From an uncultured Peptococcaceae bacterium (GTDB taxonomy: Bacteria; Bacillota; Peptococcia; Peptococcales; Peptococcaceae): a DNA stretch of 64,000 nucleotides. The stretch spans positions 6,756 to 70,755 of the forward strand of contig CABUKW010000003.1 of NCBI GenBank assembly GCA_902492275.1, written 5' to 3'. The position numbers were made by a program, and so were the translations under genes. This document shows positions 3,985 to 32,377 of this stretch, one piece after another (within the stretch, counting starts at the first letter, position 1; every line of letters starts with the position of its first letter). The notes beneath the pieces are model-generated. The model was not told where the DNA came from, did no database searches, and saw nothing but the letters and a program-made list of their open reading frames with translations.

Positions 3985-4011
3985 TCAAACAGAAAGAGAA
4001 AAAATTGCAAA

Positions 4012-4027
4012 TGTTTCACGTGAAACA
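4012..4027. promoter_or_regulatory. parS (ParB-binding site), perfect 16-mer
   Basis: TGTTTCACGTGAAACA with flanks aaaaattgcaaa / ttttt; lies between the rep stop and the yjbR-like gene. Confidence 0.85.
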
Positions 4028-4070
4028 TTTTTAAAATTTCCGATTAAGAAATTTAGAGGAGTGGAGAATT

Positions 4071-4415
4071 ATGCAAACCAGAGCGGAAGCCATTGCCTGC
4101 TGCCTGCAGTTGCCCGATGTGTACGAGGACTATCCCTTTGCCGATAAAAACTGGACTGTAATGCGGCACCGGCAAAATAAAAAAGCCTATGCCTGGATTT
4201 TTGAACGGCAAGGCCATATCTGGATTAATGTCAAATGCGCGCCGGGCTGGCTGGAGTTTTGGCGACAGAAATACGAAGCCGTTATTCCGGCCTATCACTT
4301 AGACAAAGACCATTGGAACTCCATCATTCTCAATGGCACCGTGGACGATTCCGATATCCGCGACATGATTGGCGAAAGCTACCGGCTCACCGCGCCGAAG
4401 GTGAAGAAAAGATAA
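4071..4415 (+). CDS. MmcQ/YjbR-family DNA-binding protein
   Basis: 114 aa; LPDVYEDYPF...WTVMRH...NKKAYAWIFERQG...INVKC...YHLDKDHWNSI is typical of YjbR. Confidence 0.7.
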   Translation: MQTRAEAIACCLQLPDVYEDYPFADKNWTVMRHRQNKKAYAWIFERQGHIWINVKCAPGWLEFWRQKYEAVIPAYHLDKDHWNSIILNGTVDDSDIRDMIGESYRLTAPKVKKR

Positions 4416-4476
4416 CAGGGAAGGGTGTGTTGTCTGCTATACCGTCGGTAAAGATAGCGGAGGCGCGTTCACTAAT

Positions 4477-4546
4477 CTAACATGGAAAAGCAAGATGGTT
4501 TATGCTATAATTGGGATGATAAATCGGAAGTTGACGGGAGGCTTTT
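4477..4546 (+). repeat. Promoter sub-module, copy 0 (right-hand part of the cassette module only)
   Basis: ctaacatgg...ggtttaTGCTATAATtgggatgataaat resembles 5014-5087 and 5770-5843; extended -10 at 4503-4511; RBS GGGAGG. Confidence 0.6.
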
Positions 4547-4834
4547 ATGTCAAAATTAAGTGACTTAATAAATGCAGAAAATGGATTTCTTGTAAAGTTA
4601 CGATATGAGAATATCTTTGATGAAGCGAAATATTCAGATATTAAAAATCAAATTTTAATTGAAATTCCAACATGGAAAAAACAAGGATTTGTTTTGAATT
4701 GTGATGTTAAAGCGTTAATTGGTTTGATTGATCAATTAGCAGGAGGGAGTCGCTTTTTTGATGAAGAAACAGAAATCAGGGTTGAGGACGCTTGTATGGA
4801 AATAGAAGAAATTGTAAGCTGCTTAGAAAGCTAA
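4547..4834 (+). CDS. Small hypothetical protein (cassette gene 1)
   Basis: 95 aa, acidic, no signal peptide; good RBS; no family recognised. Confidence 0.55.
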   Translation: MSKLSDLINAENGFLVKLRYENIFDEAKYSDIKNQILIEIPTWKKQGFVLNCDVKALIGLIDQLAGGSRFFDEETEIRVEDACMEIEEIVSCLES

Positions 4835-4835
4835 C

Positions 4836-5087
4836 TTCTAGTTTATCAGATAACTGCTATTTGGCTATTTTGATTGAAGCATATCAAAAGCTGTCTTTCA
4901 GCGATATAAACTTTCAGCAGTGCAAAAGGAAAATGGGCGCAATAAAAAAATTGCAAATGTTTCACGTGAAACATTTTTTGCTGTTGGCGTTGGACATGGG
5001 AGTATGCAAGAAGCTAACATGAGAATGCATTGTGGTTCATGCTATAATTGGGATGACAAATTGAGATTTTGAAAGGAGACTAATAGA
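4836..5087 (+). repeat. Cassette junction module, copy 1 (~250 bp, parS-centred, carries promoter and RBS)
   Basis: Differs from 5593-5843 at only about eight positions over ~235 nt by eye. Contains parS at 4958 and TGCTATAAT at 5040-5048. Confidence 0.85.
4958..4973. promoter_or_regulatory. parS, perfect 16-mer
   Basis: aaaaaaattgcaaaTGTTTCACGTGAAACAtttttt inside module copy 1. Confidence 0.85.
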
Positions 5088-5579
5088 ATGATAGATTCTA
5101 TATTTGGTCAAATAGAAAAGGACGAATTTTATTTCAATGGAGATTTCATACTTGAATTTGCGGGTACTGCGTATCCCGTAAAATTATTAATAGAATTTGA
5201 TGATGAACGAATTACACAAAAGCAATATGAAGCATTCCAATGTTTTATGAAAGAATGGCCTGTTTTGCAACCTAAGTTGATAAAAGCGTTAATAGACTAT
5301 TACAACCAGGAAGAACGCTTTTCGTGGGGACCGGATGACGAAGAAGAACTTGCCATATGGTGGCCGGAAATTGAAACGAAAGAAGCTCTTTTACGTGCAG
5401 TAACAGTAGAATCTATCGTAATTCCCAGCGAATATCTTATGGAGGCAAAGGGCGGTCACACTATTTACCTTTTATTTTCGAAAGCATGGGGCGGAGAAGA
5501 TTTGGACGATAATGGAATAGGGGTTGCTTTTTTGAATGAGGAGATTGACGAAATCGCTTACAAAGACATCGCATTTTGA
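5088..5579 (+). CDS. Hypothetical protein, immunity-protein-like small acidic domain (cassette gene 2)
   Basis: 163 aa; RBS AAGGAG; W/E-rich (EEELAIWWPEIETKEAL). Overall look resembles small DUF-type immunity proteins; family not confidently recognised. Confidence 0.55.
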   Translation: MIDSIFGQIEKDEFYFNGDFILEFAGTAYPVKLLIEFDDERITQKQYEAFQCFMKEWPVLQPKLIKALIDYYNQEERFSWGPDDEEELAIWWPEIETKEALLRAVTVESIVIPSEYLMEAKGGHTIYLLFSKAWGGEDLDDNGIGVAFLNEEIDEIAYKDIAF

Positions 5580-5592
5580 TGAAATGACAAGA

Positions 5593-5843
5593 TTCCAGTT
5601 TATCAGATAACTGTCATTCGGCTATTTTGATGGAAGCATATCAAAAGCTGTCTTTCAGCGACATAAACTTTCAGCAGTGCAAAAGGAAAATGGGCGCAAT
5701 AAAAAAATTGCAAATGTTTCACGTGAAACATTTTTTGCTGTTGGCGTTGGACATGGGAGTATGCAAGAAGCTAACATGAGAATGCATTGTGGTTCATGCT
5801 ATAATTGGGACGATAAATTGAGATTTTGAAAGGGGGAGAAAAA
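5593..5843 (+). repeat. Cassette junction module, copy 2
   Basis: Near-identical to 4836-5087; parS at 5715; TGCTATAAT at 5797-5805. Confidence 0.85.
5715..5730. promoter_or_regulatory. parS, perfect 16-mer
   Basis: aaaaaaattgcaaaTGTTTCACGTGAAACAtttttt inside module copy 2. Confidence 0.85.
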
Positions 5844-6239
5844 ATGGCAATATCGAATATAAATACAATTATCAATAGCGATATTCATAAAGTCTGGAAT
5901 ATTGTTTTAGCTGTCGATAAATATAATATATGGCGAAGCGATTTAACTAAAACAGAAATCATAAATGACAAGCAATTTATTGAGTACACTAAAGACGGAT
6001 ATGCTACTAAATTTTCTATTACTAGTGTTGAGCCATATAAACGATGGGAATTTGACATGGAAAATAGCAATATGACGGGGCATTGGGTTGGTACTTTTAC
6101 AGCTAAGGGAAGTGAAACACAAATTGATTTTACAGAAAATGTGACACCTAAAAAATGGTTTATGAAACCTTTTGTAAAAATCTATCTGAAGAAGCAGCAA
6201 GAGAAATTTGTTATGGACTTAAAAAAAGCATTGGAATAA
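5844..6239 (+). CDS. SRPBCC-superfamily (START/Bet v1-like) protein (cassette gene 3)
   Basis: MAISNINTIINSDIHKVWNIV...YNIWRSDL...WEFDMENSNMTGHWVGTF pattern; ATG at 5844 after GGGGGAG. Confidence 0.6.
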   Translation: MAISNINTIINSDIHKVWNIVLAVDKYNIWRSDLTKTEIINDKQFIEYTKDGYATKFSITSVEPYKRWEFDMENSNMTGHWVGTFTAKGSETQIDFTENVTPKKWFMKPFVKIYLKKQQEKFVMDLKKALE

Positions 6240-6242
6240 CAA

Positions 6243-6404
6243 TTCCAGTTTGTCAGGCAGTTGCCGATATTAGATAACTGCTATTTCGCTATTTTGATGG
6301 AAGCATATCAAAACCTGTCTGTCAGCGACATAAACTTTCAGCCGCACCAAGGGAAAAAGGCGCAAAAAATTGCAAATGTTTCACGTGAAACATTTGCAAT
6401 TTTT
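6243..6404 (+). repeat. Cassette junction module, copy 3 (left half plus parS only, more diverged)
   Basis: ttccagttt...gataactgctatttcgctattttgatggaagcatatcaaaacctgtctgtcagcgacataaactttcagc aligns with copies 1 and 2. It ends in a 40-bp perfect palindrome (6365-6404). Confidence 0.75.
6377..6392. promoter_or_regulatory. parS, perfect 16-mer
   Basis: Core of the perfect 40-bp palindrome aaaaattgcaaaTGTTTCACGTGAAACAtttgcaattttt; 17 nt from the convergent brnQ stop. Confidence 0.85.
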
Positions 6405-6408
6405 GTTC

Positions 6409-7734
6409 TTAGAATTTCTTTTGTATGGCGTGTACCAGTGCGCCGATGAGGCCGCCCAGGATAGCGGGAACAATCCAGCCCAGGCTGAGATCGTACAGGG
6501 GCACCAGCTGCAGCCATTGGCTGAGGATACCCAGCGACAGGCCGTAGTTGGCGGCCAACGCTTCTAAGCCGTTGGGAATGCTGATGAGCGCGGTGCCGAC
6601 CAAAATGCCGATATAAATGGCTTGACGGCTTTGCAGCCATTTGTCCAAAAAGGAGACGGCCACCAACGCCATCAATATGGGGTAAACCATCAGCAAAATG
6701 GGCAATGTGATGCTGATTAATTGGGTCAGGCCAATATTGCTGATGAAAAAGCTGAACACGCAAACGGCGATAATTACATGATTGTATTCCAGCTTCACAT
6801 AGGTGCGGCTGAAATAATCGCCGAACGAGGTGGTTAAGCCGATGGCGGTTGTCAAACAGGCGAACAGTACCGCTACGCCTAAAATCAGCATCCCCACTGT
6901 GCCAAACATAGAGTTGGCCACCGCCGATAAAAGCTGACCGCCGTTGGAAAATTGGCCCAGCGCGCTGGAGGTAGCGCCTACATAGGCCAAAATGCCGTAG
7001 ACCACCGCCAAGCCGACAGCGGCCAATAAACCGGCCAGCAACGTATATTTTACGATGTTGCCTTCTTTTTGGATACCCATGCCTTCTACGTTCTCAATGA
7101 CAATGAGGGCGAAAACGCCGGCGGCCAAAGCGTCCAGCGCCTGATAGCCTTCGATTAATCCCTTGAAGAAAGGAATGGAGCCATAATCACCTACCGGCGC
7201 GTTTAACGGACTGATGGGATGAACGATTGCGCTTAGTCCGATAATGAAAATGGACAGCAGCAAAATCGGCGTCAAAATTTTTCCCACGATGTAGACAATC
7301 TTTTGCGGATTGGCCGAGAGAAAATAGGTCAGCCCAAAAAAGACAGCCGTAAACAAAATAGAAAACAGCATTGTGTTGGCCCCTTCGCCTAAAAAGGGCA
7401 GCAGCGCCAGTTCAAAGGACACGCTGCCGGTGCGGGGAATGGCGAATAAGGGGCCGATTAATAGATAAATCAACGCGGCAAAAAAGGCGGCAAACCGCGC
7501 GCCTGCTTTGCTCAGCAATTTCAGCAGAGAACGGCCGGCAAACACAACGGCGGCGATGGTGATAAGCGGCAGCCCCACGTCGGTGGCCACGTAGCCAGCC
7601 AGCGCGGCCCATACGTTGGTACCGGCAGCCTGTCCCATAGCCGGCGGGAAAATCATGTTCCCGGCGCCGAAGAACAGCGCAAAGAGCATGAGCGATAATG
7701 ATAGCAGTTGGGAAAAGGACAATTTTTCTTTCAT
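6409..7734 (-). CDS. brnQ: Branched-chain amino acid transport system II carrier (LIVCS family)
   Basis: 441 aa, about 12 TM segments; LMLFALFFGAGNMIFPPAMG N-terminal signature. Confidence 0.85.
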   Translation of the reverse strand: MKEKLSFSQLLSLSLMLFALFFGAGNMIFPPAMGQAAGTNVWAALAGYVATDVGLPLITIAAVVFAGRSLLKLLSKAGARFAAFFAALIYLLIGPLFAIPRTGSVSFELALLPFLGEGANTMLFSILFTAVFFGLTYFLSANPQKIVYIVGKILTPILLLSIFIIGLSAIVHPISPLNAPVGDYGSIPFFKGLIEGYQALDALAAGVFALIVIENVEGMGIQKEGNIVKYTLLAGLLAAVGLAVVYGILAYVGATSSALGQFSNGGQLLSAVANSMFGTVGMLILGVAVLFACLTTAIGLTTSFGDYFSRTYVKLEYNHVIIAVCVFSFFISNIGLTQLISITLPILLMVYPILMALVAVSFLDKWLQSRQAIYIGILVGTALISIPNGLEALAANYGLSLGILSQWLQLVPLYDLSLGWIVPAILGGLIGALVHAIQKKF

Positions 7735-7980
7735 GACTACCTCCTGTATACAGTATTTCGTTAAAAACTATAAAAAAAGCGGCTTTTCTATAGCCAACGC
7801 AATTATTCTATCACAAATGTGATACAGAAACAACAAGGAAATCATAGAGGTACCGGTGGCGGCGCAAAAAATGCCGACGGAAAAAACAGCTTGTCCTTTG
7901 GAAGTTTACAGGGAACCGGCTGTGCGAGATGTTCGTCTACAAAGAAAGTACGTCTTTATACAAGGAAATGAGGTGTGGCT

Positions 7981-16525: not shown

Positions 16526-16549
16526 CGGTTTGTATAAGAATTTTGCAAA

Positions 16550-16565
16550 TGTTTCACGTGAAACA
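16550..16565. promoter_or_regulatory. parS, perfect 16-mer
   Basis: ttttgcaaaTGTTTCACGTGAAACAtttat; 12 nt after the hxlR-like stop, upstream of the TDT transporter gene. Confidence 0.85.
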
Positions 16566-16576
16566 TTTATAAATTA

Positions 16577-17122: not shown

Positions 17123-17413
17123 ATGGATGTAAAAGCTTATCTGGAAATTACTATGAAAATCGAAAAAGCAAATCGGGCTGCTGCAGCCGAGATTTACAGC
17201 AAGTACCGCGAACCATTTTTGCAGGAGATTACAGGCGCGCAGACAAAGGAATTGTTGATTCGCGATGAAGATGTGCAGGTTCTGCACGGCTTTGATAGTG
17301 TAGATCATGCGCAGGCGTATTTGCAGAGCGCGTTGTTTCAGCATGACGTCTTTGTCGGGCTGCAGCCTTTATGGAGTGCCGCGCCTGAGGTGAAGGTTTA
17401 TGGTGTCGCTTAA
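17123..17413 (+). CDS. Small hypothetical protein
   Basis: 96 aa; divergent from the HxlR regulator gene; no family recognised. Confidence 0.5.
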   Translation: MDVKAYLEITMKIEKANRAAAAEIYSKYREPFLQEITGAQTKELLIRDEDVQVLHGFDSVDHAQAYLQSALFQHDVFVGLQPLWSAAPEVKVYGVA

Positions 17414-17440
17414 AGTGTTTCTGTTTTGTTAAATTGCAAA

Positions 17441-17456
17441 TGTTTCACGTGAAACA
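17441..17456. promoter_or_regulatory. parS, perfect 16-mer
   Basis: aaattgcaaaTGTTTCACGTGAAACAtttgcaatttt; 28 nt after the stop at 17413. Confidence 0.85.
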
Positions 17457-17558
17457 TTTGCAATTTTCCTGCGGAAATCATCTGGCTAAAAAGCGGCAAA
17501 AAAATTCGCGGCTTGCTTATCGATGTGGTATAATAAAAAGAAAAAGGAGTTGTGTGCC

Positions 17559-18823: not shown

Positions 18824-18870
18824 GCGAATGTGTTTATTTTTGATAAATGTTTGACCAACAGGATTGCAAA

Positions 18871-18886
18871 TGTTTCACGTGAAACA
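18871..18886. promoter_or_regulatory. parS, perfect 16-mer
   Basis: Core of a 44-bp palindrome (18857-18900), aacaggattgcaaa-core-tttacaatcctgtt, with one mismatched pair. Confidence 0.85.
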
Positions 18887-19311
18887 TTTACAATCCTGTT
18901 GAGAACTGAGAATTGAAATACAATCATAACGCCATTATGATTGCAATGGATAGGTTTAGTTTTATGCGCTGGTTCAATTATTTTTTTGTTTCATAGACAG
19001 TCGTTCTATTTGAGCGGCTGTTTTTTATATGCGGTAAAAAATTTCTTCATTACTATAAATTTTTTGACCCCGTATTTTTGTCTGTAACGCCGAAAAATTT
19101 GTCACGCGATAAATAAGTCATAAAAAGATAGTCAGCCTGCGAAATCGAAAAATTTGGCGTCAGAAAAAATTTGACTGCTTTGAAGAAAAATCTGGGGCGG
19201 CGTTTTTTTCGAAAATCAAAAATATTTTTTAAATTCGCAAAATTTTTTCGCGGTTTGCTATATTCAGCAGAGAAATTTTCCTTTATAATAGAATTAAAAT
19301 AAAAACAAAAA

Positions 19312-19327
19312 TGTTTCACGTGAAACA
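19312..19327. promoter_or_regulatory. parS, perfect 16-mer, directly upstream of parA
   Basis: aaaaaTGTTTCACGTGAAACAtttgcaaatttt; 50 nt before the parA ATG. Confidence 0.9.
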
Positions 19328-19377
19328 TTTGCAAATTTTGCGAGAAAAATCATGCATCCTGATAAGGAGTGAATCGT

Positions 19378-20136
19378 ATGGGAAAAGTGATTGTTGTTGC
19401 CAATCAGAAGGGCGGCGTAGCCAAAACGACAACGTCGGTCAATTTGGCTGCGTGTCTGGCCCATTATAAAAAGAAAGTGTTGCTCATTGATTTAGATCCG
19501 CAGGGCAATGCCAGCAGCGGGCTGGGTATCAATAAAAATGGGTTGGAACATTCGTCTTATGATGTGCTGGTGAATTTTGTACCCATTGATAAAATTACGG
19601 TGGAAGTTAATAAAAAATTATCGGTATTGCCCGCGAAGGTGGAACTGGCTGGCGCGGAGATGGAATTGGTGGCGGCCATTTCACGGGAAATGCGTTTGAA
19701 AAATGCGTTGGACGATGTGAAAGACAACTATGATTACATCATCATTGATACGCCGCCTTCCTTGGGGTTGCTCACGTTGAATGCGCTCACAGCAGCCGAT
19801 ACCTTTTTGGTGCCCATTCAATGTGAATATTATGCGCTGGAAGGATTGAGCCAACTGCTGAGCACCATTAAACTGGTACAGAAAAATCTCAATCCTGGTT
19901 TGCAGATGGAAGGCATTCTGCTCACTATGTACGATAACCGCACCAATCTGTCCAATCAGGTTGTGGCCGATGTGCGGGAAAATTTCAAAGAAAAAGTATT
20001 TAAAACCATAATTCCCCGGAATGTGCGGCTTAGCGAAGCGCCTAGCTTTGGGCAGTCCATTCTGGATTATGACGCAAAATCCAAAGGCGCAGAGACGTAT
20101 CTGGCGCTGGCCAAGGAGGTAATCAAACATGGCTAA
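19378..20136 (+). CDS. parA: ParA/Soj chromosome-partitioning ATPase
   Basis: MGKVIVVANQKGGVAKTTTSVNLAA deviant Walker A, LLIDLDPQGNAS, IIIDTPPSLG; ATG at 19378 after AAGGAG. Confidence 0.95.
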   Translation: MGKVIVVANQKGGVAKTTTSVNLAACLAHYKKKVLLIDLDPQGNASSGLGINKNGLEHSSYDVLVNFVPIDKITVEVNKKLSVLPAKVELAGAEMELVAAISREMRLKNALDDVKDNYDYIIIDTPPSLGLLTLNALTAADTFLVPIQCEYYALEGLSQLLSTIKLVQKNLNPGLQMEGILLTMYDNRTNLSNQVVADVRENFKEKVFKTIIPRNVRLSEAPSFGQSILDYDAKSKGAETYLALAKEVIKHG

Positions 20137-21034
20137 GACAAAAGGCGGCTTAGGCCGTGGACTAGGCGCGTTGTTGCCTGAGTATGAAGAAATTGTAGAA
20201 ACACACAATAGCAGCGACGGTGTGGTAGAGATTGAACTGGAAAAAATATTTCCCAATCCGGATCAGCCGCGCAAAACCTTTGACGAGGATAAGCTGATTG
20301 ATTTGGCCGAGTCTATTCGTGAGCATGGCGTGTTGCAGCCCATTTTGGTTGCGCCCCGCGACGATAAGTTTATGATTATCGCCGGCGAACGCCGCTATCG
20401 GGCGTCAAAGCGGGCAGGCCTGAGCACCATTCCGGCGTTGATTCGGGAAATGGACGATGAAAAGGTGATGGAGCTGGCGTTGATTGAAAACGTGCAGCGG
20501 GATAACCTGACGCCCATTGAAGAAGCGCGGGCCTATGATGTGCTTATGAACCGGTTTGGTTATACCCAGGAACGGTTATCGAAGCGGATGGGGAAAAGCC
20601 GTAGCGCCATTGCCAATATTACGCGGCTGTTGGCGTTGCCGGAGGACGTGCAGCAGATGGTGCAGGAGGGCAAGCTTACCACTGGTCATGTGCGGCCTAT
20701 GCTGAGCATTGACGTTCCTGAATGGCAGAGCGCCTTCGCCCATGAGATTTATCAAAGCAATCTTTCTGTGCGCGACGTAGAAAAAATGGTGAAGAACTCT
20801 TTAGATGCGGGCATGGTGCAGTGGGAAGAAAAAGAAGTTTTATTTCATAATCGGGCCAAATATAAAAAGCTGCCCGATAATCTGCGGGTTTTGCAGGAAC
20901 AATTAGCGGAAAAATTAAGCACCAAGGTCAGCATCAAAAAAAATACCGATGGCAGCGGTCGGTTGATTATTGAGTATTACAGTGAGGATGATTTGAAGCG
21001 GGTATTTGACGCACTGAACGGCAACTTTTATTGA
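20129..21034 (+). CDS. parB: ParB/Spo0J partition protein (CTPase-type)
   Basis: 301 aa; GLGRGLGALL, NPDQPRK, IIAGERRYRASK arginine patch, HTH region; overlaps the parA stop by 8 nt. Confidence 0.95.
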   Translation: MAKTKGGLGRGLGALLPEYEEIVETHNSSDGVVEIELEKIFPNPDQPRKTFDEDKLIDLAESIREHGVLQPILVAPRDDKFMIIAGERRYRASKRAGLSTIPALIREMDDEKVMELALIENVQRDNLTPIEEARAYDVLMNRFGYTQERLSKRMGKSRSAIANITRLLALPEDVQQMVQEGKLTTGHVRPMLSIDVPEWQSAFAHEIYQSNLSVRDVEKMVKNSLDAGMVQWEEKEVLFHNRAKYKKLPDNLRVLQEQLAEKLSTKVSIKKNTDGSGRLIIEYYSEDDLKRVFDALNGNFY

Positions 21035-21061
21035 TGGGATTGGCGTTAGATGATTTGCAAA

Positions 21062-21077
21062 AGTTTCACGTGAAACA
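21062..21077. promoter_or_regulatory. parS, one mismatch, directly downstream of parB
   Basis: aGTTTCACGTGAAACA with flanks tgatttgcaaa / tttacc; 28 nt after the parB stop. Confidence 0.75.
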
Positions 21078-21298
21078 TTTACCGCAAATGCGCATAAAGT
21101 ACTTGCACAAATTGTTTTGTTGCTATAAAATTAAATAAGAAACAGTGTGATGCATATTTTGTCAGCCGCAAAATATGTTTGCGCCATTTGTTAGCCGAAT
21201 TACATTCCCATGAAACGCTAGGAAGTGATTCGGTTCTTTTTATAAGTGCTGCGAGGTTGCTTTTGTTGCGAAAAGAAAAGATAAGCGAGGTGTTTCGC

Positions 21299-21784
21299 GT
21301 GAAAACGAAACGGACAGGCTTGTATAAATTAAGCGTGTTGTTGCTGGTTTGTGTGTTGTTAACGGGGTGGGCCGAATTATATCCTATGCGCACTTTTCCG
21401 CCGGCAATAGAAAAGGTGCAGTGGATGTATGTAAATCAATGGTCAGATTGGGAAACACACCATCATATGCTTGATGCGGCTGATGTGAGAGCGTTTTACG
21501 ATGAACTGCAAAACTTGGATTTGGTGCGCAGAGGAACGTCGTGGGAAGATATGGACGCTGCACATCATGTGGTGTATGAGGCACACAGTTGTTATCAAGT
21601 AGGCAGATCTGATAAAAATTTATGCTGGGCAAATTTTTATCTTGCTGATGATGGGTTTCTCTTGCTCTCAGTCAGTAACCAGTTTGTCAGCAATCAATTT
21701 GTTCTTTATGAAGACGTCAGTGGAAATTATGATGAGTTTTTTTCGTTGGTGCGGCAGTTGGATGAAAAATCTCAGCTAGAATAA
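21299..21784 (+). CDS. Hypothetical exported/anchored protein
   Basis: GTG at 21299 after AGCGAGG gives VKTKRTGLYKLSVLLLVCVLLTGW, a signal-like N-terminus; the track ORF begins at 21179. Confidence 0.5.
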   Translation: MKTKRTGLYKLSVLLLVCVLLTGWAELYPMRTFPPAIEKVQWMYVNQWSDWETHHHMLDAADVRAFYDELQNLDLVRRGTSWEDMDAAHHVVYEAHSCYQVGRSDKNLCWANFYLADDGFLLLSVSNQFVSNQFVLYEDVSGNYDEFFSLVRQLDEKSQLE

Positions 21785-21793
21785 TTTTGCAAA

Positions 21794-21809
21794 TGTTTCA
21801 CGTGAAACA
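21794..21809. promoter_or_regulatory. parS, perfect 16-mer
   Basis: attttgcaaaTGTTTCACGTGAAACAtctg; 10 nt after the stop at 21784. Confidence 0.85.
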
Positions 21810-21828
21810 TCTGAAGGGAGCGATGTAA

Positions 21829-22080
21829 ATGGGTGAGTTGCGACAGATTCCCGGTGTGGGAAAAACGACCGAGCAGGATTTATTGGCCATCGGTTATAGG
21901 GATATTGCTTCCTTGCGCGGCGCTGATCCGCAGGAAATGTATGAACAGGAATGTATCCGCAAGGGAGTGCAGGTAGACCGTTGTGTGCTTTATGTGTATC
22001 GCTGTGCCGTGTATTATGCCAATACGCCGCCGGAAGAACGAAATCCGGAGCTGCTCAAGTGGTGGAATTGGAAGGATTGA
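21829..22080 (+). CDS. Helix-hairpin-helix domain protein (Cdd1-like pathogenicity-locus family)
   Basis: 83 aa; LRQIPGVGKTTEQDLLAIGYRDIASL. Confidence 0.65.
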   Translation: MGELRQIPGVGKTTEQDLLAIGYRDIASLRGADPQEMYEQECIRKGVQVDRCVLYVYRCAVYYANTPPEERNPELLKWWNWKD

Positions 22081-22118: not shown

Positions 22119-22706
22119 ATGAGAAATGAAATGCGAGGGTTTTTCTTTTTAAGCTATGCGTTGATTTGCGTCTGTATGAGTTATTTGTGTGGCGGGCTTT
22201 ATTACGGCGGTGGTTTATGGGCAGGTCTAGCAGTTATTTTTTTGATTATCGGCGTGGTCTTTCTCTCCAATGCCAGAGATTCCAAAACAACGAAGAATAA
22301 CAGGAAAAAGCCGGATATATTATGCGTGGGACAGGCTTGGACGGAGTTTAATTGTTTTCAGTTAAAGGTGGACAATGTTGCTGTGAAAAAGGCTGAGGAT
22401 GGTCGTCGGCTTGGTACCGCTATGTTTCACGTGGAAAACTGGCTGACCGTGCCAACGCAGGGCGAAAATAAGCTATCGGTGCAAATGGAGGCCATTGCGG
22501 AGCAAGGCAATCACAGCGTGGAACTGGAAGTGTTAAACGCAAGCGGCGTTGAAGTGGCGGCAGGTGAACAACAGCAAGCAGCTTATACCATTGTGCTGCC
22601 GGAAAAAGCAGCGCGAATACTGTTGACCTTTTCCGTGACAGTTGAGCAGGATGGCAAGGTGTATCGGCAAAAGTATGAATTTTATCCGGCGCACTACGAA
22701 AGATGA
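22119..22706 (+). CDS. Hypothetical membrane-anchored protein
   Basis: 195 aa; two N-terminal TM segments then a beta-rich domain. Contains a degenerate parS-like 16-mer at 22423. Confidence 0.55.
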   Translation: MRNEMRGFFFLSYALICVCMSYLCGGLYYGGGLWAGLAVIFLIIGVVFLSNARDSKTTKNNRKKPDILCVGQAWTEFNCFQLKVDNVAVKKAEDGRRLGTAMFHVENWLTVPTQGENKLSVQMEAIAEQGNHSVELEVLNASGVEVAAGEQQQAAYTIVLPEKAARILLTFSVTVEQDGKVYRQKYEFYPAHYER

Positions 22707-22806
22707 TGCAGGCGTTATATTTGATTGTTGCGCTGTTGTTGCGTTATCGTTATGTGGAGAAAGGGTTTATAAGCGCATGACATTTATTTAGTAGGAAAAT
22801 TGCAAA

Positions 22807-22822
22807 TGTTTTACGTGAAACA
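22807..22822. promoter_or_regulatory. parS, one mismatch
   Basis: aaaattgcaaaTGTTTtACGTGAAACAtttgcaaaa; intergenic. Confidence 0.75.
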
Positions 22823-22865
22823 TTTGCAAAACGAATGCAGTAATGCTGCCTGTTGGATAAAAAGT

Positions 22866-23539: not shown

Positions 23540-23755
23540 TTATTCTGCGTCGGTCAAAGAGATGACCTGATAGCCGCCGTCGATGACAACCTGTTTCATG
23601 GCGTCGTCGCTGACGGTGCCGTCGGTGGTAATATAGGCCGCTTTGTCTTCTAAGCTGACGGTGGCGGTAACGCCGTCTAAGCCGTTTAATGCTTTGGTTA
23701 CTGCGTTTTGGCAGTGGGGGCACATCATGCCTTCAATTTTCATCGTTTTTTTCAT
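23540..23755 (-). CDS. CopZ-like HMA domain, possibly also translated on its own (in frame with and nested in the copA ORF)
   Basis: GAAGGAG, 8 nt, then ATG at 23755; MKKTMKIEGMMCPHCQNAVTKAL... (71 aa). Confidence 0.35.
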   Translation of the reverse strand: MKKTMKIEGMMCPHCQNAVTKALNGLDGVTATVSLEDKAAYITTDGTVSDDAMKQVVIDGGYQVISLTDAE

Positions 23756-26452
23756 GGTACATACTCCTTCGTGATTAATATTTGCTGATGTTTCACGTGA
23801 AACATTTGCATCTGATAAATTGGAAGTCGGTTGGTCATCGGTGAGCGCAAGCACCTGATAGTCGGCGTTGATGACAGCCTGCTTCAGTGCGTCATCACTG
23901 ACGGTGCCGTCGGTGATGATATAGGCGGCGTTATCTTCTAAGCTGACGGTGGCAGTCACGCCGTCTAAGCTGTTCAGCGCTTTGGTAACGGCATTTTGAC
24001 AATGGCTGCACATCATACCGCCGATTTGCATGGTTTTATGCACTCCGCTTTTCTTGCTTTCAGTGGCAGATGCTGGGCCGGTTGGTTTGAGAATAGACGA
24101 AGCGCTTTCCAAGCTGGTGATAAGCTGTACTTCATTGGCATCTGCTGGCAGAGCTGTGACTGTAGTTTGTTCCGGTAATACTGGACGGAATTTGCGCAGC
24201 CGCAGCGCGTTGGTGACAACGAAAACGCTGCTGAAGCTCATAGCCGCAGCGCCAAACATGGGGCTTAGCAGCCATCCCGTCCAATGATAAAATACGCCGG
24301 CGGCTAAAGGAATGCCCAGGCAGTTGTAGAAAAAGGCCCAGAACAGATTTTGTTTGATATTGCGAATGACTGATTTGCTGAGTTGAATGGCAGTCACAAC
24401 GTCCAACAGGTCGTTTTTCATCAGCACAATGTCGGCGCTTTCCAACGCCACATCGGTGCCGGCGCCGATAGCTAAACCAACGTCGGCGCGCGCCAGAGCG
24501 GGCGCGTCGTTGACGCCGTCGCCCACCATGGCGACCACCTTGCCTTGCGCTTGCAGCGCTGCAATCTGTTGTTCTTTGTCCTGCGGCAGCACTTCGGCGA
24601 TAACGTCATCCAACTGTAATTGCTGCTGAATAGCTGTTGCGGTGCGAGCATTGTCGCCGGTGAGCATGATAACCTGCACGCCCATCGCTTTCAGTTGCTG
24701 AATGGCTTGTTGACTGGTCGGCTTCACCACATCGGCTGCGCCGATGATGCCGATTACCTGCTGCTCGTCGGAGAAAATCAACGGCGTTTTTCCGGCGGTG
24801 GCCAAATCATCCAGCACGCTGGCCCATTGCTGCAGTGGAATATTTTTTTCGTTCATCAGGCGGCGATTGCCTGCGTAATAATAGGTGCCGTTAATTTTAG
24901 CCTGAATGCCTTTTCCCGGCAAGGACTGGAATTGTTCCGATGTTGCAGCGCTGATTTGTTGCTCAGCGGCGTAGGTCAGCACTGCTTCGGCCAGCGGATG
25001 CTCGCTGCCTTCTTCCAGCGCGGCGGCGATGCTGATAAATTCCTCTTGCGTGGAAAAAATAGTCTGTACGTCTGTCACAACAGGCTTGCCTTGGGTGATG
25101 GTGCCGGTTTTGTCCAGCACTACAGTTTGAATATTATGGGCCGTTTCCAATGCTTGCCCCGATTTAATCAAAATGCCATGCTCAGCGCCTTTGCCGGTGC
25201 CCACCATAATGGCTACCGGTGTGGCCAATCCCAGCGCGCAGGGGCAAGAGATGACCAGCACGCAAATCGCGCAGGATAAAGCGAATTCAAAGGTGGCGCC
25301 GCTTAACAGCCAGACAATGGCAGTGAGCAGCGCAATGCTGATTACAACGGGCACGAAAATACCAGCGATGCGGTCAGCCATTTTGGCGATGGGCGCTTTG
25401 GTGGCCGATGCATCTTCCACCAGACGGATGATTTGGGCAAAGGTGGTGTCGTTACCAACCTTAGAAGCCGTAAAGCGAATGAAGCCGCCTTTGTTAATTG
25501 TAGCTGCAATAACTTCATCGCCCGGTTCTTTTTCTACCGGGATACTTTCGCCGGTGATGGCCGATTGATCCACGCTGGTATTGCCTTCGGCGATGATGCC
25601 GTCCACCGGAATACGTTGCCCCGGTTTGACCAATACCATATCGCCCACCACAACCTGTTCAACAGGCACTTCCATCTGCTGTCCATTGCGCTCTATGGTG
25701 GCAGTTTTGGGCGCCAAGTCCATCAGCCGCGTCAGAGCTTCGCTGGTTTTGCCTTTAGAGCGGGTTTCCAGATATTTGCCGACGGTGATTAACGCCAAAA
25801 TCATCACAGCCGATTCAAAATATAAATCGTGATGATAGCGAGCCACCAGCTCCATATCGCCGGCGCCTAAGCCGTAACTCATGCGGTAAATGGCGAAGAT
25901 GCCGTAAATCATAGCAGCGCCGGAGCCGATGGCAATCAGGCTGTCCATGTTGGGCGCGCCGTGGGATAAGGTTTGAAAGCCCTTGATATAAAACTTGCGG
26001 TTCACATAAGCGATGGGCAGCGCCAACAAAAATTGCGTAAACGCAAAGCTGACGGCATTGGCGTGGCCGCTTAAAAAGCTGGGCAGCGGCAGACCAACCA
26101 TGTGGCCCATAGAAACATACATCAGCGGGATTAAAAAGACAAAGCTGACAATCAGTCGGTGCTTCATTTCTTTTAGCTGCGTGTCCATAGGATTTTCCCG
26201 CTGTACGGGAGCGGCGGCTGGCGCTGCGGCGCTATTGGCTTCCTGCTTGACGCTGGCGCCGTAGCCTGCCTGTGTTACTGCTGAAATAATGTCGTTGGTT
26301 GTGAGCTTACTGTCGTCAAACTCTACCTGCATGCTGTTGGTCAGCAAATTTACGGTAACGTCGTTCATGCCCTCCAGCTTGCGCACGCATTTTTCCACCC
26401 GTGATGAGCAAGCGGAGCAGGTCATTCCCGTTACATCGAATTTTTCTTTCAA
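23540..26452 (-). CDS. copA: Copper-translocating P1B-type ATPase with one N-terminal and two C-terminal HMA domains
   Basis: 970 aa; GMTCSACSSRVE, CPC motif (SCPCALGLATP), DKTGTIT, MLTGDN, GDGVNDAPAL; C-terminal GMMCSHC and GMMCPHC domains. Confidence 0.9.
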   Translation of the reverse strand: MKEKFDVTGMTCSACSSRVEKCVRKLEGMNDVTVNLLTNSMQVEFDDSKLTTNDIISAVTQAGYGASVKQEANSAAAPAAAPVQRENPMDTQLKEMKHRLIVSFVFLIPLMYVSMGHMVGLPLPSFLSGHANAVSFAFTQFLLALPIAYVNRKFYIKGFQTLSHGAPNMDSLIAIGSGAAMIYGIFAIYRMSYGLGAGDMELVARYHHDLYFESAVMILALITVGKYLETRSKGKTSEALTRLMDLAPKTATIERNGQQMEVPVEQVVVGDMVLVKPGQRIPVDGIIAEGNTSVDQSAITGESIPVEKEPGDEVIAATINKGGFIRFTASKVGNDTTFAQIIRLVEDASATKAPIAKMADRIAGIFVPVVISIALLTAIVWLLSGATFEFALSCAICVLVISCPCALGLATPVAIMVGTGKGAEHGILIKSGQALETAHNIQTVVLDKTGTITQGKPVVTDVQTIFSTQEEFISIAAALEEGSEHPLAEAVLTYAAEQQISAATSEQFQSLPGKGIQAKINGTYYYAGNRRLMNEKNIPLQQWASVLDDLATAGKTPLIFSDEQQVIGIIGAADVVKPTSQQAIQQLKAMGVQVIMLTGDNARTATAIQQQLQLDDVIAEVLPQDKEQQIAALQAQGKVVAMVGDGVNDAPALARADVGLAIGAGTDVALESADIVLMKNDLLDVVTAIQLSKSVIRNIKQNLFWAFFYNCLGIPLAAGVFYHWTGWLLSPMFGAAAMSFSSVFVVTNALRLRKFRPVLPEQTTVTALPADANEVQLITSLESASSILKPTGPASATESKKSGVHKTMQIGGMMCSHCQNAVTKALNSLDGVTATVSLEDNAAYIITDGTVSDDALKQAVINADYQVLALTDDQPTSNLSDANVSRETSANINHEGVCTMKKTMKIEGMMCPHCQNAVTKALNGLDGVTATVSLEDKAAYITTDGTVSDDAMKQVVIDGGYQVISLTDAE
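23789..23804. promoter_or_regulatory. parS, perfect 16-mer, inside the copA reading frame
   Basis: tttgctgaTGTTTCACGTGAAACAtttgcatc; read as ...DANVSRETSAN... in the linker between the two C-terminal HMA domains. Confidence 0.85.
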
Positions 26453-26500: not shown

Positions 26501-26914
26501 TCATACAGAGACGGTAATACCGTCAATTTTTGCTAACGCTTGCAATATTGTTTGACATGTTGAGGAAGGTGCTGCCAGAATATAATTTTCTGTACCATAA
26601 TGTTCTGACGCCAATGAATTTCCGAGAAAAATGGCAAAGAAAGGCATCTGCTTATTGTAGATTGCCGTGTCGGTTGGTTTATCCATAGCGGCAAGCATTT
26701 GGCGAAAATGGGGCGTTACTACGCCGCTGATTACCACGCCGTCGCGCCAACTGTTTATTTGCCGTTGCCCGTATTGCAGAGCAAGGGTAATAGTCTCTGT
26801 TTCTTCTTTCCAACAATGAATTTCAAAAGGCACGCCATCTATAGCAAACTGCGAAAGCAAACATTTCAAATGGCTGCAATCCGTTACTGCATGATCTATT
26901 TCGATAGCAATCAA
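26501..26914 (-). CDS. Hypothetical protein lying between csoR and copA
   Basis: 137 aa; no family recognised; 48 nt upstream of the copA start. Confidence 0.5.
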   Translation of the reverse strand: MIAIEIDHAVTDCSHLKCLLSQFAIDGVPFEIHCWKEETETITLALQYGQRQINSWRDGVVISGVVTPHFRQMLAAMDKPTDTAIYNKQMPFFAIFLGNSLASEHYGTENYILAAPSSTCQTILQALAKIDGITVSV

Positions 26915-26945
26915 AACATGGCACCTCGCTTAAGTATTTTGCAAA

Positions 26946-26961
26946 TGTTTCACGTGAAACA
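26946..26961. promoter_or_regulatory. parS, perfect 16-mer
   Basis: attttgcaaaTGTTTCACGTGAAACAtctgcaatttttt; between the csoR stop and the 26914 start. Confidence 0.85.
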
Positions 26962-27057
26962 TCTGCAATTTTTTATTGCTATAGCTTTAGCAATGAACTG
27001 CAAAAAATTTTGAAAACGTGTTTCTGCAATACATATAGTAAGTAATGCGCATGGCAA

Positions 27058-27321: not shown

Positions 27322-27342
27322 AAGTTATCATCTCCAATCACC

Positions 27343-27359: not shown

Positions 27360-27371
27360 CTTGCAAGTCCG

Positions 27372-28680: not shown

Positions 28681-28720
28681 GGAATGTTCCCTTGACAGAA
28701 GCATCGATGAATGCGGCAAA

Positions 28721-28736
28721 TGTTTCACGTGAAACA
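28721..28736. promoter_or_regulatory. parS, perfect 16-mer
   Basis: gcggcaaaTGTTTCACGTGAAACAtttgcaaaaa; between convergent HD-domain and hicB-like genes. Confidence 0.85.
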
Positions 28737-28781
28737 TTTGCAAAAATGAAACCCCATCAGTTTTCAGCTGATGGGGTTTCA

Positions 28782-28991: not shown

Positions 28992-29262
28992 GGTATCTAC
29001 CTCCTAATTGATATTTTAGTAAGAGATTCCGAATCTGTTTTACTTGATAGGCTTTTGCTTTGTTTCCTTTCGGCTGTATATTTAAAATTTCAATAATGTC
29101 ACTTCTTGTGAAAACTAGTTTCCTAAATTTATTGATTATATTTACTAATTTATTTTGTTTTATTGTATGGAAAATTATCGGTTCTGTCAACACAGAGCAG
29201 CGCATTGATTGCTGCAGGGCTCTGGAAACTTTTTCTGTTTGCCTTCGTCTATAAAGTAACAA
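28984..29262 (-). CDS. Hypothetical small basic protein overlapping the hicB start (possible non-HicA toxin partner)
   Basis: Up to 92 aa (an internal Met would give about 73 aa); 8-nt overlap with hicB; lacks the HicA GSH motif. Confidence 0.4.
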   Translation of the reverse strand: MLLYRRRQTEKVSRALQQSMRCSVLTEPIIFHTIKQNKLVNIINKFRKLVFTRSDIIEILNIQPKGNKAKAYQVKQIRNLLLKYQLGGRYHA

Positions 29263-29282
29263 ATAGAGAGAGGGTGTTGCAG

Positions 29283-30209
29283 GTGAAACAATTTATTGCA
29301 ATTTTGCTGCTGGTGGTAGTGCTTTTCGCTGTGGCGGTATATTGTCAGACAGTGGACAAAACAGCTATGGAGGAAGTCAGTGAAGCGCTGTCCAAGATTG
29401 GTTACGATGTGGCTGTTACAGAAGAAACGCAGGATTTTCTGCATGGCCAACGGCATCGTCTGGTGCTGGAGCCTGGGGAAGGGCGTGCGGTGACTGTGTA
29501 TGTTTACAAAAATGCGGATGAGGCCAAAAAAGAGGCTGGCTATATCACCGCTGACGGTTTTGGTTTGGATTATATCGATAAGCTGGGGAATGGTCAGGGT
29601 GTACGGGTAGAATGGATTGCTGCACCCCACTTTTTTCTGTATCAAAACGTGATTGTGCAATATATCGGCACTGATGAAAATATTTTGGCGGCGCTGCAAA
29701 ATTTGTGCGGCGAACAAATTGCCGGTTCGCCTTTCCGGCAGGATACGCCATCTTGTACCACATTGGAGCCGTGGATGTCGCAGCCGGCGCCTGATGCACC
29801 GGAGGTATTTTTGGAGGTGCTGCCTGATTCGGTGCGCAGCGATAGTTTAACGATGCGGTTGGTCAATAACAGTAATCTGAGCAGTGACAGTGTGGACGTG
29901 GAATATGGCGAAGCATTTTCTCTGCTGCAAAAAATGACGATGATTTCCTGCGGCGTTTCAAAGGCTGATGAAAATCAAGCGGTCAGTGAAACGATCGTGA
30001 CCTGGGAACCGGTTGCTGTGGATTGGGCTTTTGATGATTTAGCCTACTCTTTGCCGGTTGGCGCGCAAGTGGAGCTGCAGGTTGCCTTGCCGGATTTAGC
30101 GCCGGGGGAATATCGCATCACCAAAAATATTCTTTATCAGCAAAATGGAGAGAGCGATTACGCTAGTTTTGAAGTATATGCTGATTTTGCGGTGTCTGAT
30201 AAGAAATAA
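29283..30209 (+). CDS. Hypothetical secreted/anchored protein
   Basis: GTG at 29283 after GAGAGGG gives VKQFIAILLLVVVLFAVAVYC, a signal anchor; beta-rich C-terminal domain. Confidence 0.55.
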   Translation: MKQFIAILLLVVVLFAVAVYCQTVDKTAMEEVSEALSKIGYDVAVTEETQDFLHGQRHRLVLEPGEGRAVTVYVYKNADEAKKEAGYITADGFGLDYIDKLGNGQGVRVEWIAAPHFFLYQNVIVQYIGTDENILAALQNLCGEQIAGSPFRQDTPSCTTLEPWMSQPAPDAPEVFLEVLPDSVRSDSLTMRLVNNSNLSSDSVDVEYGEAFSLLQKMTMISCGVSKADENQAVSETIVTWEPVAVDWAFDDLAYSLPVGAQVELQVALPDLAPGEYRITKNILYQQNGESDYASFEVYADFAVSDKK

Positions 30210-30742: not shown

Positions 30743-30796
30743 AGCAATCTCAGTTGGTTCTGTTATTGCTATTGGAATTAGAAGGGAGAATGTTTC

Positions 30797-31012
30797 ATGG
30801 CTAATTTGAGCCCTTTTTGTACTTGCAAAAATATGGATTGCCCGTTGCATCCTACCAAACATGAAAACGGCTGCGCGCCCTGCATTGTTAAAAATTTGCG
30901 CTTGAAGGAGATGCCAAACTGTTTTTTCAATCAGGTGGACGGTGCGGAACAGCGGCAAGGTGATGCATTTCAAGATTTTGCTAAATTGGTTTTGCAAAAT
31001 GAAAAGAAATAA
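30797..31012 (+). CDS. Small Cys-rich protein (DUF6485-like)
   Basis: 71 aa; CTCKNMDCPLHPTKHENGCAPCIVKNL...MPNCFF. Confidence 0.6.
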   Translation: MANLSPFCTCKNMDCPLHPTKHENGCAPCIVKNLRLKEMPNCFFNQVDGAEQRQGDAFQDFAKLVLQNEKK

Positions 31013-31038
31013 GTTTTCGGTAACGACTGAAAAATTTT

Positions 31039-31067
31039 ACTGCTGTGCATAGCACGGCAGTTTTTTT
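31039..31067 (+). terminator. Intrinsic terminator
   Basis: actgctgtgc-ata-gcacggcagt followed by ttttttt. Confidence 0.8.
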
Positions 31068-31169
31068 ATTTGTGAAGAGGCAGTCAGGAAGATTCTTTAT
31101 TTATTGCGGACAAGGCTGACCGTTTGTGCTACAATAATTTTCAGGATTATGGACATGCTAAGAGAAAAA

Positions 31170-31185
31170 TGTTTCACGTGAAACA
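31170..31185. promoter_or_regulatory. parS, perfect 16-mer
   Basis: agaaaaaTGTTTCACGTGAAACAtttgcaattt; 20 nt before the rarD-like start. Confidence 0.85.
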
Positions 31186-31205
31186 TTTGCAATTTGGGGG
31201 AGGGC

Positions 31206-32093
31206 ATGAATGTTATGAATTCGTCAGCGGTGTATGTGCTGCTCTGTTATATTTTGTGGGGATTGCTGCCGATTTATTGGAAACAACTCAGCGCAGTCAA
31301 TTCGCTTTACATTTTGGCCAGTCGGATTACCTTTTCTATGATTTTTTGCGGATTGCTATTGCTGCTGTGTAAGCAATGGCCGCAGGTGCGGGCGCTGCGT
31401 CATGATAAACGGCAATGCAGGCTGCTGGCTTGGGGCAGTATTTTAATCACAATCAACTGGGGATCTTATATTTTTGCGGTCAACAGCGGTCATATTTTAG
31501 ATGCCAGTTTGGCCTACTATCTCAATCCGATTATGGTGATTTTGCTGGGCGCTGTCTTTTTTGGCGAGCGCTTGCGCAAATGGCAGACGGTAGCTGTGGT
31601 GCTGTCTGCTGTCGGCGTGCTGTGTTCTGTTTTCTCTTATGGTAAAGTACCGGTATTTGCGCTGATTATCGGCGGCAGCTTTGCTATTTATGGCGCGGTG
31701 AAAAAACAGGTGAACGTGGGCAGCATGGTGTCTACGTTTATGGAAACGGCAATGGTGTTTCCGCTGTTTTTGTTGGTTATGGTTGTGATGGAAAGTCAGG
31801 GCAATGGCTGTATCGGTCAGCTTTCCGGCTGGCAATACGGATTGATTCCGCTGGCGGGAGTGGTGACATCGGTGCCGCTGTTGGTATATGCAAAAGGAAT
31901 CCAGCATACATCGCTGGCGTTGTCAGGCATTTTGATGTACGTAAACCCCACGCTGCAGTTACTCATCGGCGTATTTCTGTATCATGAACCCTTTACCCAA
32001 GCGCAGGCGGTGACGTTTTTGTTTGTGTGGGCGGCGGTGATTATTTTTATCATCGACAGCCTGCGGGGGCGGACGGGTTCTTCTCGTCAATAA
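31206..32093 (+). CDS. rarD: EamA/RarD-family transporter
   Basis: About 295 aa, 10 TM segments; VLLCYILWGLLPIYWK, a RarD-like N-terminus; ATG after GGGGGAGGG. Confidence 0.75.
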   Translation: MNVMNSSAVYVLLCYILWGLLPIYWKQLSAVNSLYILASRITFSMIFCGLLLLLCKQWPQVRALRHDKRQCRLLAWGSILITINWGSYIFAVNSGHILDASLAYYLNPIMVILLGAVFFGERLRKWQTVAVVLSAVGVLCSVFSYGKVPVFALIIGGSFAIYGAVKKQVNVGSMVSTFMETAMVFPLFLLVMVVMESQGNGCIGQLSGWQYGLIPLAGVVTSVPLLVYAKGIQHTSLALSGILMYVNPTLQLLIGVFLYHEPFTQAQAVTFLFVWAAVIIFIIDSLRGRTGSSRQ

Positions 32094-32167
32094 GTACACT
32101 GCAAAAAATTTTTCCTTCTTCGCAAGGTTTATCATTGACTGGAGAAAAGCTGCAAAAAAATTGCAAA

Positions 32168-32183
32168 TGTTTCACGTGAAACA
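32168..32183. promoter_or_regulatory. parS, perfect 16-mer (last of the array)
   Basis: Core of a perfect 42-bp palindrome (32155-32196): aaaaaattgcaaa-core-tttgcaatttttt. Confidence 0.85.
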
Positions 32184-32377
32184 TTTGCAATTTTTTATTG
32201 TAGGATTTTTCAGGAGCGTTAGAGATTTTTTCCGTCTAACATCATTGATTAGTGTACAATGCAGTTTTTCGCTCTTGCCAAAATGAAAAAAACTGCGTAT
32301 ACTGAAAAGGAATGCAACGGCAAAGAAGCTATGGTGATAGGTAGCTGTTGCGATTTACGGAGAAGGTTGGAGCAATT

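Follow-up and report, generated by a model that had tools for sequence, protein, structure and literature searches.

A dense array of predicted parS sites with extended palindromic arms around parAB in an uncultured Peptococcaceae bacterium

In chromosomal ParABS systems, parS is ordinarily viewed as a 16-bp site that is gained and lost by point mutation, and in Bacillus subtilis the sites lie mostly within genes. The numbers of sites are 10 in B. subtilis, 10 in Corynebacterium glutamicum and around 20 or more in Streptomyces coelicolor (see the review PMC7022226). Myxococcus xanthus has 22 parS sites in a 3.1-kb repeat stretch (PMC3899335), which sets a precedent for dense, repeat-borne parS arrays. 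Here we describe a 64,000-nt stretch of contig CABUKW010000003.1 from an uncultured Peptococcaceae bacterium (assembly GCA_902492275.1), referred to below as the window, in which the parS core is part of a longer palindrome with A/T tracts at its ends. We read the window as carrying a chromosomal centromere array with at least 16 predicted ParB loading sites over 28 kb around parAB. Our preferred explanation for the uniform arms flanking the cores, to which we give even odds, is that sites have mainly been copied from one another and that any selection on the arms is weak.

The locus resembles chromosomal ParABS systems in its core, a 16-bp inverted repeat that matches the Firmicute consensus TGTTNCACGTGAAACA, in its canonical ParA and ParB proteins, in the clustering of sites at parAB, and in the presence of a leader site and a post-parB site. 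It differs in its consensus of about 30 bp (TTGCAAA arms) with additional A/T tracts, in the almost exclusively intergenic location of its sites, and in their density, with 16 sites in 28 kb among variable accessory genes and more sites on many contigs in genomes of the same clade. A second described process with which the locus can be compared is quasipalindrome template switching, an established mutational mechanism whose signature is clustered palindrome-perfecting changes (PMC7202029) and which is stimulated by protein roadblocks (PMC6357072). Our literature searches turned up neither an extended parS consensus nor a case in which parS serves as a terminator.

The parS array around parAB

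Coordinates are positions in the window, and each parS site is named by the first base of its 16-bp core. Searching with the core TGTTTCACGTGAAACA gave 14 exact copies and two with one mismatch (21062 and 22807), which span 4012-32183, whereas shuffled sequences gave an expectation of 0.05; across the 32-64 kb half of the window the same search gave 0 sites. The exact core at 14 sites, the clustering around canonical parA and parB genes and the absence from the other window half allow us to predict with confidence that the elements are parS centromere sites, i.e., sites where ParB would load. Two more copies, 22423 and 29275, both in coding DNA, contain two mismatches and are listed as relics together with the sites, the parAB genes and a repeated module.

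4005-4034 (core 4012-4027): parS 30-mer, left arm TTGCAAA perfect, right arm TTTTTAA.
4836-5076, + strand: repeated intergenic module, consisting of a 93-nt segment (D4), then parS, then a promoter-like segment (D5, TGCTATAAT).
4951-4980 (core 4958-4973): parS 30-mer in the duplicated 241-nt module 4836-5076, left arm perfect.
5708-5737 (core 5715-5730): parS 30-mer in the second module copy, 5593-5833 (97% identical).
6365-6404 (core 6377-6392): perfect 40-bp palindrome that separates two convergent genes and resembles a terminator on each strand (-15.3 kcal/mol, U7/U6).
16543-16572 (core 16550-16565): parS 30-mer, left arm perfect, in a segment absent from the closest relative.
17431-17466 (core 17441-17456): perfect 36-bp palindrome, terminator-like on the + strand, after the gene at 17123-17413.
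18857-18900 (core 18871-18886): 44-bp palindrome with one mismatched pair, no U-tract.
19305-19334 (core 19312-19327): parS 41 nt 5' of the parA start and about 20 nt 3' of a clade-conserved TATAAT, right arm perfect.
19369-20136, + strand: parA, ParA-family partition ATPase.
20129-21034, + strand: parB, canonical ParB/Spo0J (TIGR00180, 194 bits).
21055-21084 (core 21062-21077): parS with one core mismatch, 27 nt 3' of the parB stop, the deeply conserved post-parB site.
21787-21816 (core 21794-21809): parS, left arm perfect, right arm forming the ribosome-binding site (RBS) of the gene at 21829-22080; a 530-bp indel ends at the left arm.
22423-22438: two-mismatch parS relic inside open reading frame (ORF) 22119-22706.
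22800-22829 (core 22807-22822): parS with a single mismatch in the core and two perfect arms, which four species have conserved; homology to the relative stops at the right arm.
23782-23811 (core 23789-23804): intragenic parS, encoding NVSRET in the linker of tandem CopZ-like HMA domains.
26939-26968 (core 26946-26961): parS with a 380-bp indel (ORF 26501-26914) adjoining the left arm.
28714-28743 (core 28721-28736): parS whose ortholog in the closest relative is degenerate, with about 7 point differences.
29275-29290: two-mismatch parS relic overlapping the probable GTG start (MKQFIAILLLVV...) of the gene annotated as ORF 29163-30209.
31163-31192 (core 31170-31185): parS 8 nt 5' of the rarD-like ORF as listed (31194), with a conventional terminator (31039-31061) 110 nt upstream.
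32155-32196 (core 32168-32183): perfect 42-bp palindrome 74 nt 3' of the rarD stop, terminator-like (-15.3 kcal/mol, U7 in both directions).

A preliminary description of this DNA counted 15 of the 16 copies as intergenic, and this is confirmed: intergenic DNA makes up only 18.6% of the region in our own gene set (P = 1.4e-10). The same description placed the copies usually 10-60 nt past a stop codon or between convergent genes. About half of the sites indeed lie 9-47 nt downstream of a stop codon, but 6377 is the only one located between convergent genes. Sites 31170, 21794 and 19312 are found 8, 19 and 41 nt upstream of a start codon or ORF, respectively, and one arm contains the RBS at 21794 and 31170. 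For the rarD-like ORF, an alternative ATG occurs about 13 nt inside the listed start and is preceded by GGGGGAGGG. The sole intragenic site, 23789, lies in frame between two tandem CopZ-like HMA domains, and between relatives its right arm changes at synonymous positions only. The HMA domain is tandemly duplicated at 23540-24042 (80% identical DNA), with an RBS and ATG kept before the second copy, and the copA-HMA-HMA stretch forms a single 970-aa ORF. Relic 29275-29290 is followed by ATTGCAATTTT, which is arm-like.

The parA and parB genes are located mid-array, with one parS in the parAB leader and one just past parB. The DNA-binding domain of ParB aligns without gaps to ParBs solved on parS (6T1F and 4UMK), in which base contacts fall inside the 16-mer, and a novel DNA-binding domain in ParB was ruled out on the basis of this alignment. 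The protein aligns to the ParB/Spo0J structures 6T1F, 1VZ0 and 4UMK with E ~1e-55. The ParBs of the clade discussed below have a basic insertion of 8-11 residues in the linker before the C-terminal domain (residues ~236-250), with a conserved KYKKLP, which is absent from outgroup ParBs.

The surrounding genes are chromosomal in type (small transporters, copA/copZ, a Phd antitoxin and further metabolic genes). A plasmid or phage origin was considered and rejected: no close plasmid relatives of the parAB locus were found, and viral contigs gave only three single one-armed matches. The GC skew is monotonic across the window, placing oriC outside it. An Rfam scan of the window found no family at or near the parS sites, its sole match being a glycine riboswitch at 57586-57686 (RF00504, 55 bits), upstream of ORF 57652-59160.

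The extended arms and their distribution

Conservation well beyond 16 bp, with the consensus aaaaTTGCAAA-core-TTTGCAAtttt that had been proposed by eye, is borne out by the information content, which reaches 1 bit or more at each of the first 7 flank positions on either side. With both arms pooled, flank positions 1-7 carry 2.0, 1.5, 1.8, 1.0, 1.15, 1.1 and 1.0 bits, positions 8-11, where A predominates 5' of the core and T predominates 3' of it, carry 0.4-0.8 bits, and beyond position 12 there is nil. The core-adjacent AAA/TTT is nearly invariant, occurring in 29-30 of 30 arms in the window, and this part is also A-rich in other Firmicutes. At positions 4-7, agreement with the consensus in the window is 77-83%. 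Perfect TTGCAAA is present in 19/30 arms, and both arms are perfect at only 4 of the 15 distinct sites. The extracted flanks confirm that the 40-bp and 42-bp palindromes at 6365-6404 and 32155-32196 are perfect, as first described. The 44-bp palindrome at 18857-18900 was also recovered, with an outer arm (CAACAGGA/TCCTGTTG) that is specific to this site and absent in the closest relative, but one G/A arm mismatch keeps it from being perfect.

Within the window, the two arms of a site are not more complementary at positions 1-7 than expected when right arms are shuffled among sites (76 vs 79.8, z = -1.4). When 48 sites from four species, chosen irrespective of their flanks, were aligned, 73.9% of cells were paired vs 70.4% after shuffling, and covariation was 0.176 vs 0.130, an excess to be read with the tool's own warning that sequences related by descent can beat shuffles without any structure. 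Arm G-C and C-G pairs are broken in about 40% of these 48 sites. Each arm appears to be conserved on its own as sequence, and not as one half of a helix.

Other functions of the arm sequence were considered and rejected. TTGCAAA occurs 26 times elsewhere in the window, counting both strands, and ranks high among 7-mers of the same composition, but overlapping coding-type words do likewise and it is never paired at parS-like spacing, so that it does not qualify as a free-standing motif. A promoter with TTGCAA as -35 element was dismissed by inspection, as no acceptable -10 is found at 16-18 bp in either direction; the promoters predicted by a scan lie at other positions, such as the TGCTATAAT elements some 70 nt 3' of 4958 and 5715. 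Inspection also disposed of a sigma-54 -24/-12 promoter, for which GG is missing at the required spacing.

Syntenic loci in relatives were recovered by a ParB-based search. The 30-mer is found in just a handful of genomes, nearly all of them metagenome-assembled genomes (MAGs) of gut Peptococcaceae. The closest relative is MGYG-HGUT-00413 (ParB 97%, DNA 84-94% identical), and RGIG1748, SRR15057920_bin.47, RGIG420, UBA7185 and MGBC129548 are more distant (ParB ~80%, DNA ~70-80% identical). Clade genomes contain 10-12 parS per 20 kb, with TTGCAAA-type arms, vs 1-3 per 20 kb in about 70 other Clostridia and Bacillota. In outgroups, a parS lies 7-15 nt past the parB stop, immediately before the RBS of the next gene, and has no extended arms. 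Since outgroups have the 16-mer only and clade genomes have arms, we conclude from these genomes that the extended consensus is genuine and that it belongs specifically to one clade of gut Peptococcaceae MAGs.

A scan with the one-armed 23-mer gave matches on at least 9 contigs in MGYG-HGUT-00413 and at least 10 in UBA7185, indicating that clade genomes have far more sites than the window shows. Only single matches were found elsewhere, which by a rough estimate corresponds to chance level (7 extra bases, ~10^6 parS arms). Among sites on other contigs, 26/29 are not spanned by long open frames. The arms are more heterogeneous in a sister subclade (RGIG1748, SRR15057920_bin.47 and RGIG420), where TTCAAAA, TTACAAA, TTGCAAC and others occur despite the shared KYKKLP insertion in ParB. 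Site L013:10937 of a relative carries alternative complementary arms (TTTGCGGTAAA and TTTACCGCAAA), and the arms of L004:52 and L038:10879 are likewise alternative and paired.

Two further observations concern sites outside the window. Paired parS sites occur at set spacing, 43 bp start-to-start in RGIG1748 (L015 8571/8614 and 9156/9199), 42 bp in RGIG420 (L016 3008/3050) and 25 bp in L023 (5420/5445), and the 16-mers directly abut in L048 and L061 (10847/10863), from two other Clostridia. A 1.6-kb contig labelled Mailhella (L008) has three parS with clade-type arms, two of which share flanks with the Peptococcaceae MAG MGBC129548 (L012); this contig is probably mis-binned.

Duplication, copying and cassette junctions

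Some of the copies arose by segmental duplication. The two 241-nt modules, 4836-5076 and 5593-5833, share 97% identity, and the 93-nt D4 occurs a third time at 6268-6360, before 6377. This part of the window (4400-6420) is cassette-like, with unrelated low-GC small genes at 4547-4834 (unknown), 5088-5579 (DUF6985) and 5826-6239 (SRPBCC), each of which has a TGCTATAAT promoter-like element on its 5' side and D4 on its 3' side. D4 contains internal inverted repeats, e.g., TTTTGAT...ATCAAAA, and in MGYG-HGUT-00413 it again lies at cassette junctions, where different genes separate its copies (L007 6566-6686 and 7627-7677; L157 786-906). A larger 6-kb segment, 438-6442, with four parS is represented in RGIG1748 by 309 bp with one parS (L015 2128-2437). 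It contains flavin reductases, a PIN-domain gene (2359-2913), a Rep_trans/MobT-like gene (3124-3984), YjbR and the cassette array, and looks like the remnant of an integrated element beside an ancestral parS.

Gene-sized indels or replacements end at an outer arm edge in three places, on the left of 21794 and 26946 and on the right of 22807, and in two of these three cases the arm is kept. Single-gene indels relative to the closest relative, each adjoining a parS, are found at 21251-21787, 26563-26943 and L013 19965-20593, and the last of these insertions carries its own two-armed parS (L013:19993). The arrival of new sites with inserted segments is in part supported. The earlier proposal of recombination-driven copying is supported by the duplicated module and the arm-edge indels, but the other 12 sites show a mutual homology of only ~30-38 bp.

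Palindrome-perfecting changes are visible as well. The outer arm of 18871 is perfectly complementary in the window and not in MGYG-HGUT-00413, and at the post-parB site TA is replaced by CG in both arms between UBA7185 and MGBC129548. These clustered multi-base changes that perfect or co-vary the arms resemble quasipalindrome template switching, for which a protein tightly bound at the palindrome would act as a roadblock. Template switching explains the palindromy of each site, but not the common TTGCAAA, for which inter-site copying or selection would also be needed.

In our preferred reading, the TTGC/GCAA arm and the A/T tracts would be a lineage-specific extension that makes a 30-40-bp palindrome, and the extension would exist mainly since the sites of the clade were born and kept alike by copying. 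Such copying may proceed by segmental duplication of parS-bearing intergenic modules, by arrival with inserted gene cassettes, and by short-patch conversion or template switching, both between and within palindromes. A more far-reaching version, which we consider unlikely, would make the parS palindromes a self-propagating intergenic repeat family that spreads by copy-and-paste (cassette junction modules, short-patch conversion and ParB-stimulated template switching) rather than by point mutation, with the array evolving in concert and serving as a junction for gain and loss of accessory genes.

Recognition, termination and mobility as alternatives

As the main rival explanation, the uniform arms might instead reflect binding, with the 30-bp palindrome as the true recognition site and TTGCAAA being read by ParB (e.g., through its basic linker insertion) or by a partner and held by purifying selection, a possibility that we regard as doubtful but worth serious attention. 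The consensus level at positions 4-7, which persists at orthologous sites in at least four species, would fit this, and separately conserved half-sites are what one would expect if a dimer contacted each half-site independently. The arms deviate where the DNA has another function (RBS at 21794, coding at 23789, promoter at 19312), and the clade ParBs share the KYKKLP insertion that outgroups lack. However, the ParB domain aligns gaplessly to 6T1F and 4UMK, whose contacts stay within the 16-mer, 37% of the window arms are non-consensus beside perfect cores, and the sister subclade with the same insertion (RGIG1748 and SRR15057920_bin.47) has much more heterogeneous arms. Short-term divergence also argues against strong selection on the arms: in 28 orthologous site pairs from close relatives, picked by outer-flank identity, the core diverges by 2.0%, flank positions 1-3, 4-7 and 8-12 by 10.9%, 11.6% and 12.6%, respectively, and the outer flank by 9-12%, i.e., the arms diverge at background level and the core 5-fold more slowly. 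The 16-bp core is the strongly selected part, and selection on the arm sequence would be weak at most.

Several points weigh against copying as the main cause of arm uniformity. Picking pairs by outer-flank identity biases background divergence low, and manual inspection of the two closest pairs gives a divergence of ~5% for the arms vs ~8% for the outer flank, with counts too small to decide. TTGCAAA persists at orthologous sites even where the intergenic DNA around them can no longer be aligned between species, and four species have two perfect arms at 22807, although the core contains a mismatch in two of them. Such persistence requires a restoring force, for which selection for an extended footprint would serve as well as conversion. 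Moreover, repeats with no more than 22-30 bp in common are not known to undergo efficient conversion.

According to the preliminary description, every copy would fold as RNA into a ~13-bp hairpin with a U-tract behind it in either direction, and the element may serve as both centromere site and terminator. To examine termination, parS-centred hairpins were forced on both strands, an unpaired tail was required and energies were computed; a standard terminator scanner missed the full-length copies since the stem swallowed the U-tract, and energies and tails were recomputed by script. A 13-bp stem of -15.3 kcal/mol is followed by U7/U6 on the two strands at 6377, by U7/U7 at 32168, and by U5 on the + strand only at 17441, so that two copies behave as described in both directions and a third in one. 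Terminator geometry on the strand with the gene end is limited to these 3/16 sites, 6377 having it on both strands and the other two on the + strand. At 22807 and 26946, which also form stable stems, U-tracts occur only on the strand without a gene end, and the hairpin of 18871 is very stable (-25 to -31 kcal/mol) and lacks a U-tract. Ten sites form stems of only -2.3 to -9.5 kcal/mol on either strand, and at 28721 both a U-tract and a strong tail are missing. The conventional terminators of the window range from -15.1 to -41.9 kcal/mol, most being -15 to -18, and separate GC-rich terminators are found at 18995-19023 and 31039-31061, ~110 nt from parS. The three terminator-like copies are kept as such in the closest relative. 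Their predicted RNA hairpins probably also terminate transcription, and this would be a side job of three copies rather than the reason for conservation.

As an explanation of the whole family, selection for an RNA hairpin and U-tract that makes each site a centromere and a bidirectional intrinsic terminator, and thereby accounts for palindrome and A/T flanks, appears improbable. The resemblance of 6377, 32168 and 17441 to bona fide local terminators in architecture, energy and position past gene ends makes the dual role plausible for them, and the symmetric A-rich and T-rich surroundings of the arms across the family, the small pairing excess in four species, and the different but complementary arms at some sites of relatives (L013:10937, L004:52 and L038:10879) would also fit. 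On the other hand, the other 13 sites have no stable stem with a U-tract on the gene-end strand, covariation is lacking within the window, and the G-C and C-G pairs of the arms are frequently broken; conservation appears to be of sequence and not of pairing. The parS stem differs from usual terminators of this type in its AT-richness and in the A-U pairs that form its base. Several sites are found 8-19 nt ahead of start codons, some have a separate GC-rich terminator beside them, and the post-parB parS of other Clostridia is located within an operon junction without terminator features.

Spread of the element as a mobile palindromic repeat with a parS core, by a transposition-like process into intergenic DNA in the manner of miniature inverted-repeat transposable elements (MITEs), is not supported by the data, and we consider it highly improbable. 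Like MITEs, repetitive extragenic palindromes and bacterial interspersed mosaic elements (REP/BIME), the parS elements are short, palindromic, multi-copy and nearly always intergenic, in the window and on other contigs, and occur on many contigs per clade genome. Unlike them, they have no consistent flanking direct repeat that could be a target-site duplication (AATT matches belong to the palindromic consensus), and in the 10 sites aligned to orthologs in MGYG-HGUT-00413 no precise presence or absence of a 30-40-bp unit was seen, the differences being point changes, as at 28721, or gene-sized indels. Many copies are one-armed, the core is a strongly selected predicted protein-binding site, and the copies are concentrated around parAB, with none in the adjacent 32 kb. 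No transposase was found among the part of the window's ORFs that was scanned, and the Rep_trans/MobT-like ORF 3124-3984 is the only mobility-type gene. Given the absence of target-site duplications and of precise empty or filled sites in these comparisons, the suggestion of MITE-like spread is not upheld.

For annotation, parS hairpins with U-tracts may be mistaken for terminators, and vice versa. More broadly, a whole clade carries parS of about 30 bp, which are nearly all intergenic, densely placed and set among accessory genes that turn over fast. Should ParB or a partner read the arms, recognition in this very well-studied protein family would follow broader rules than thought. If, as in our preferred reading, the arms are a by-product of copying, the array would be a clean natural case of bacterial centromere sites evolving in concert, and of a palindrome growing outward from a core to which protein binds.

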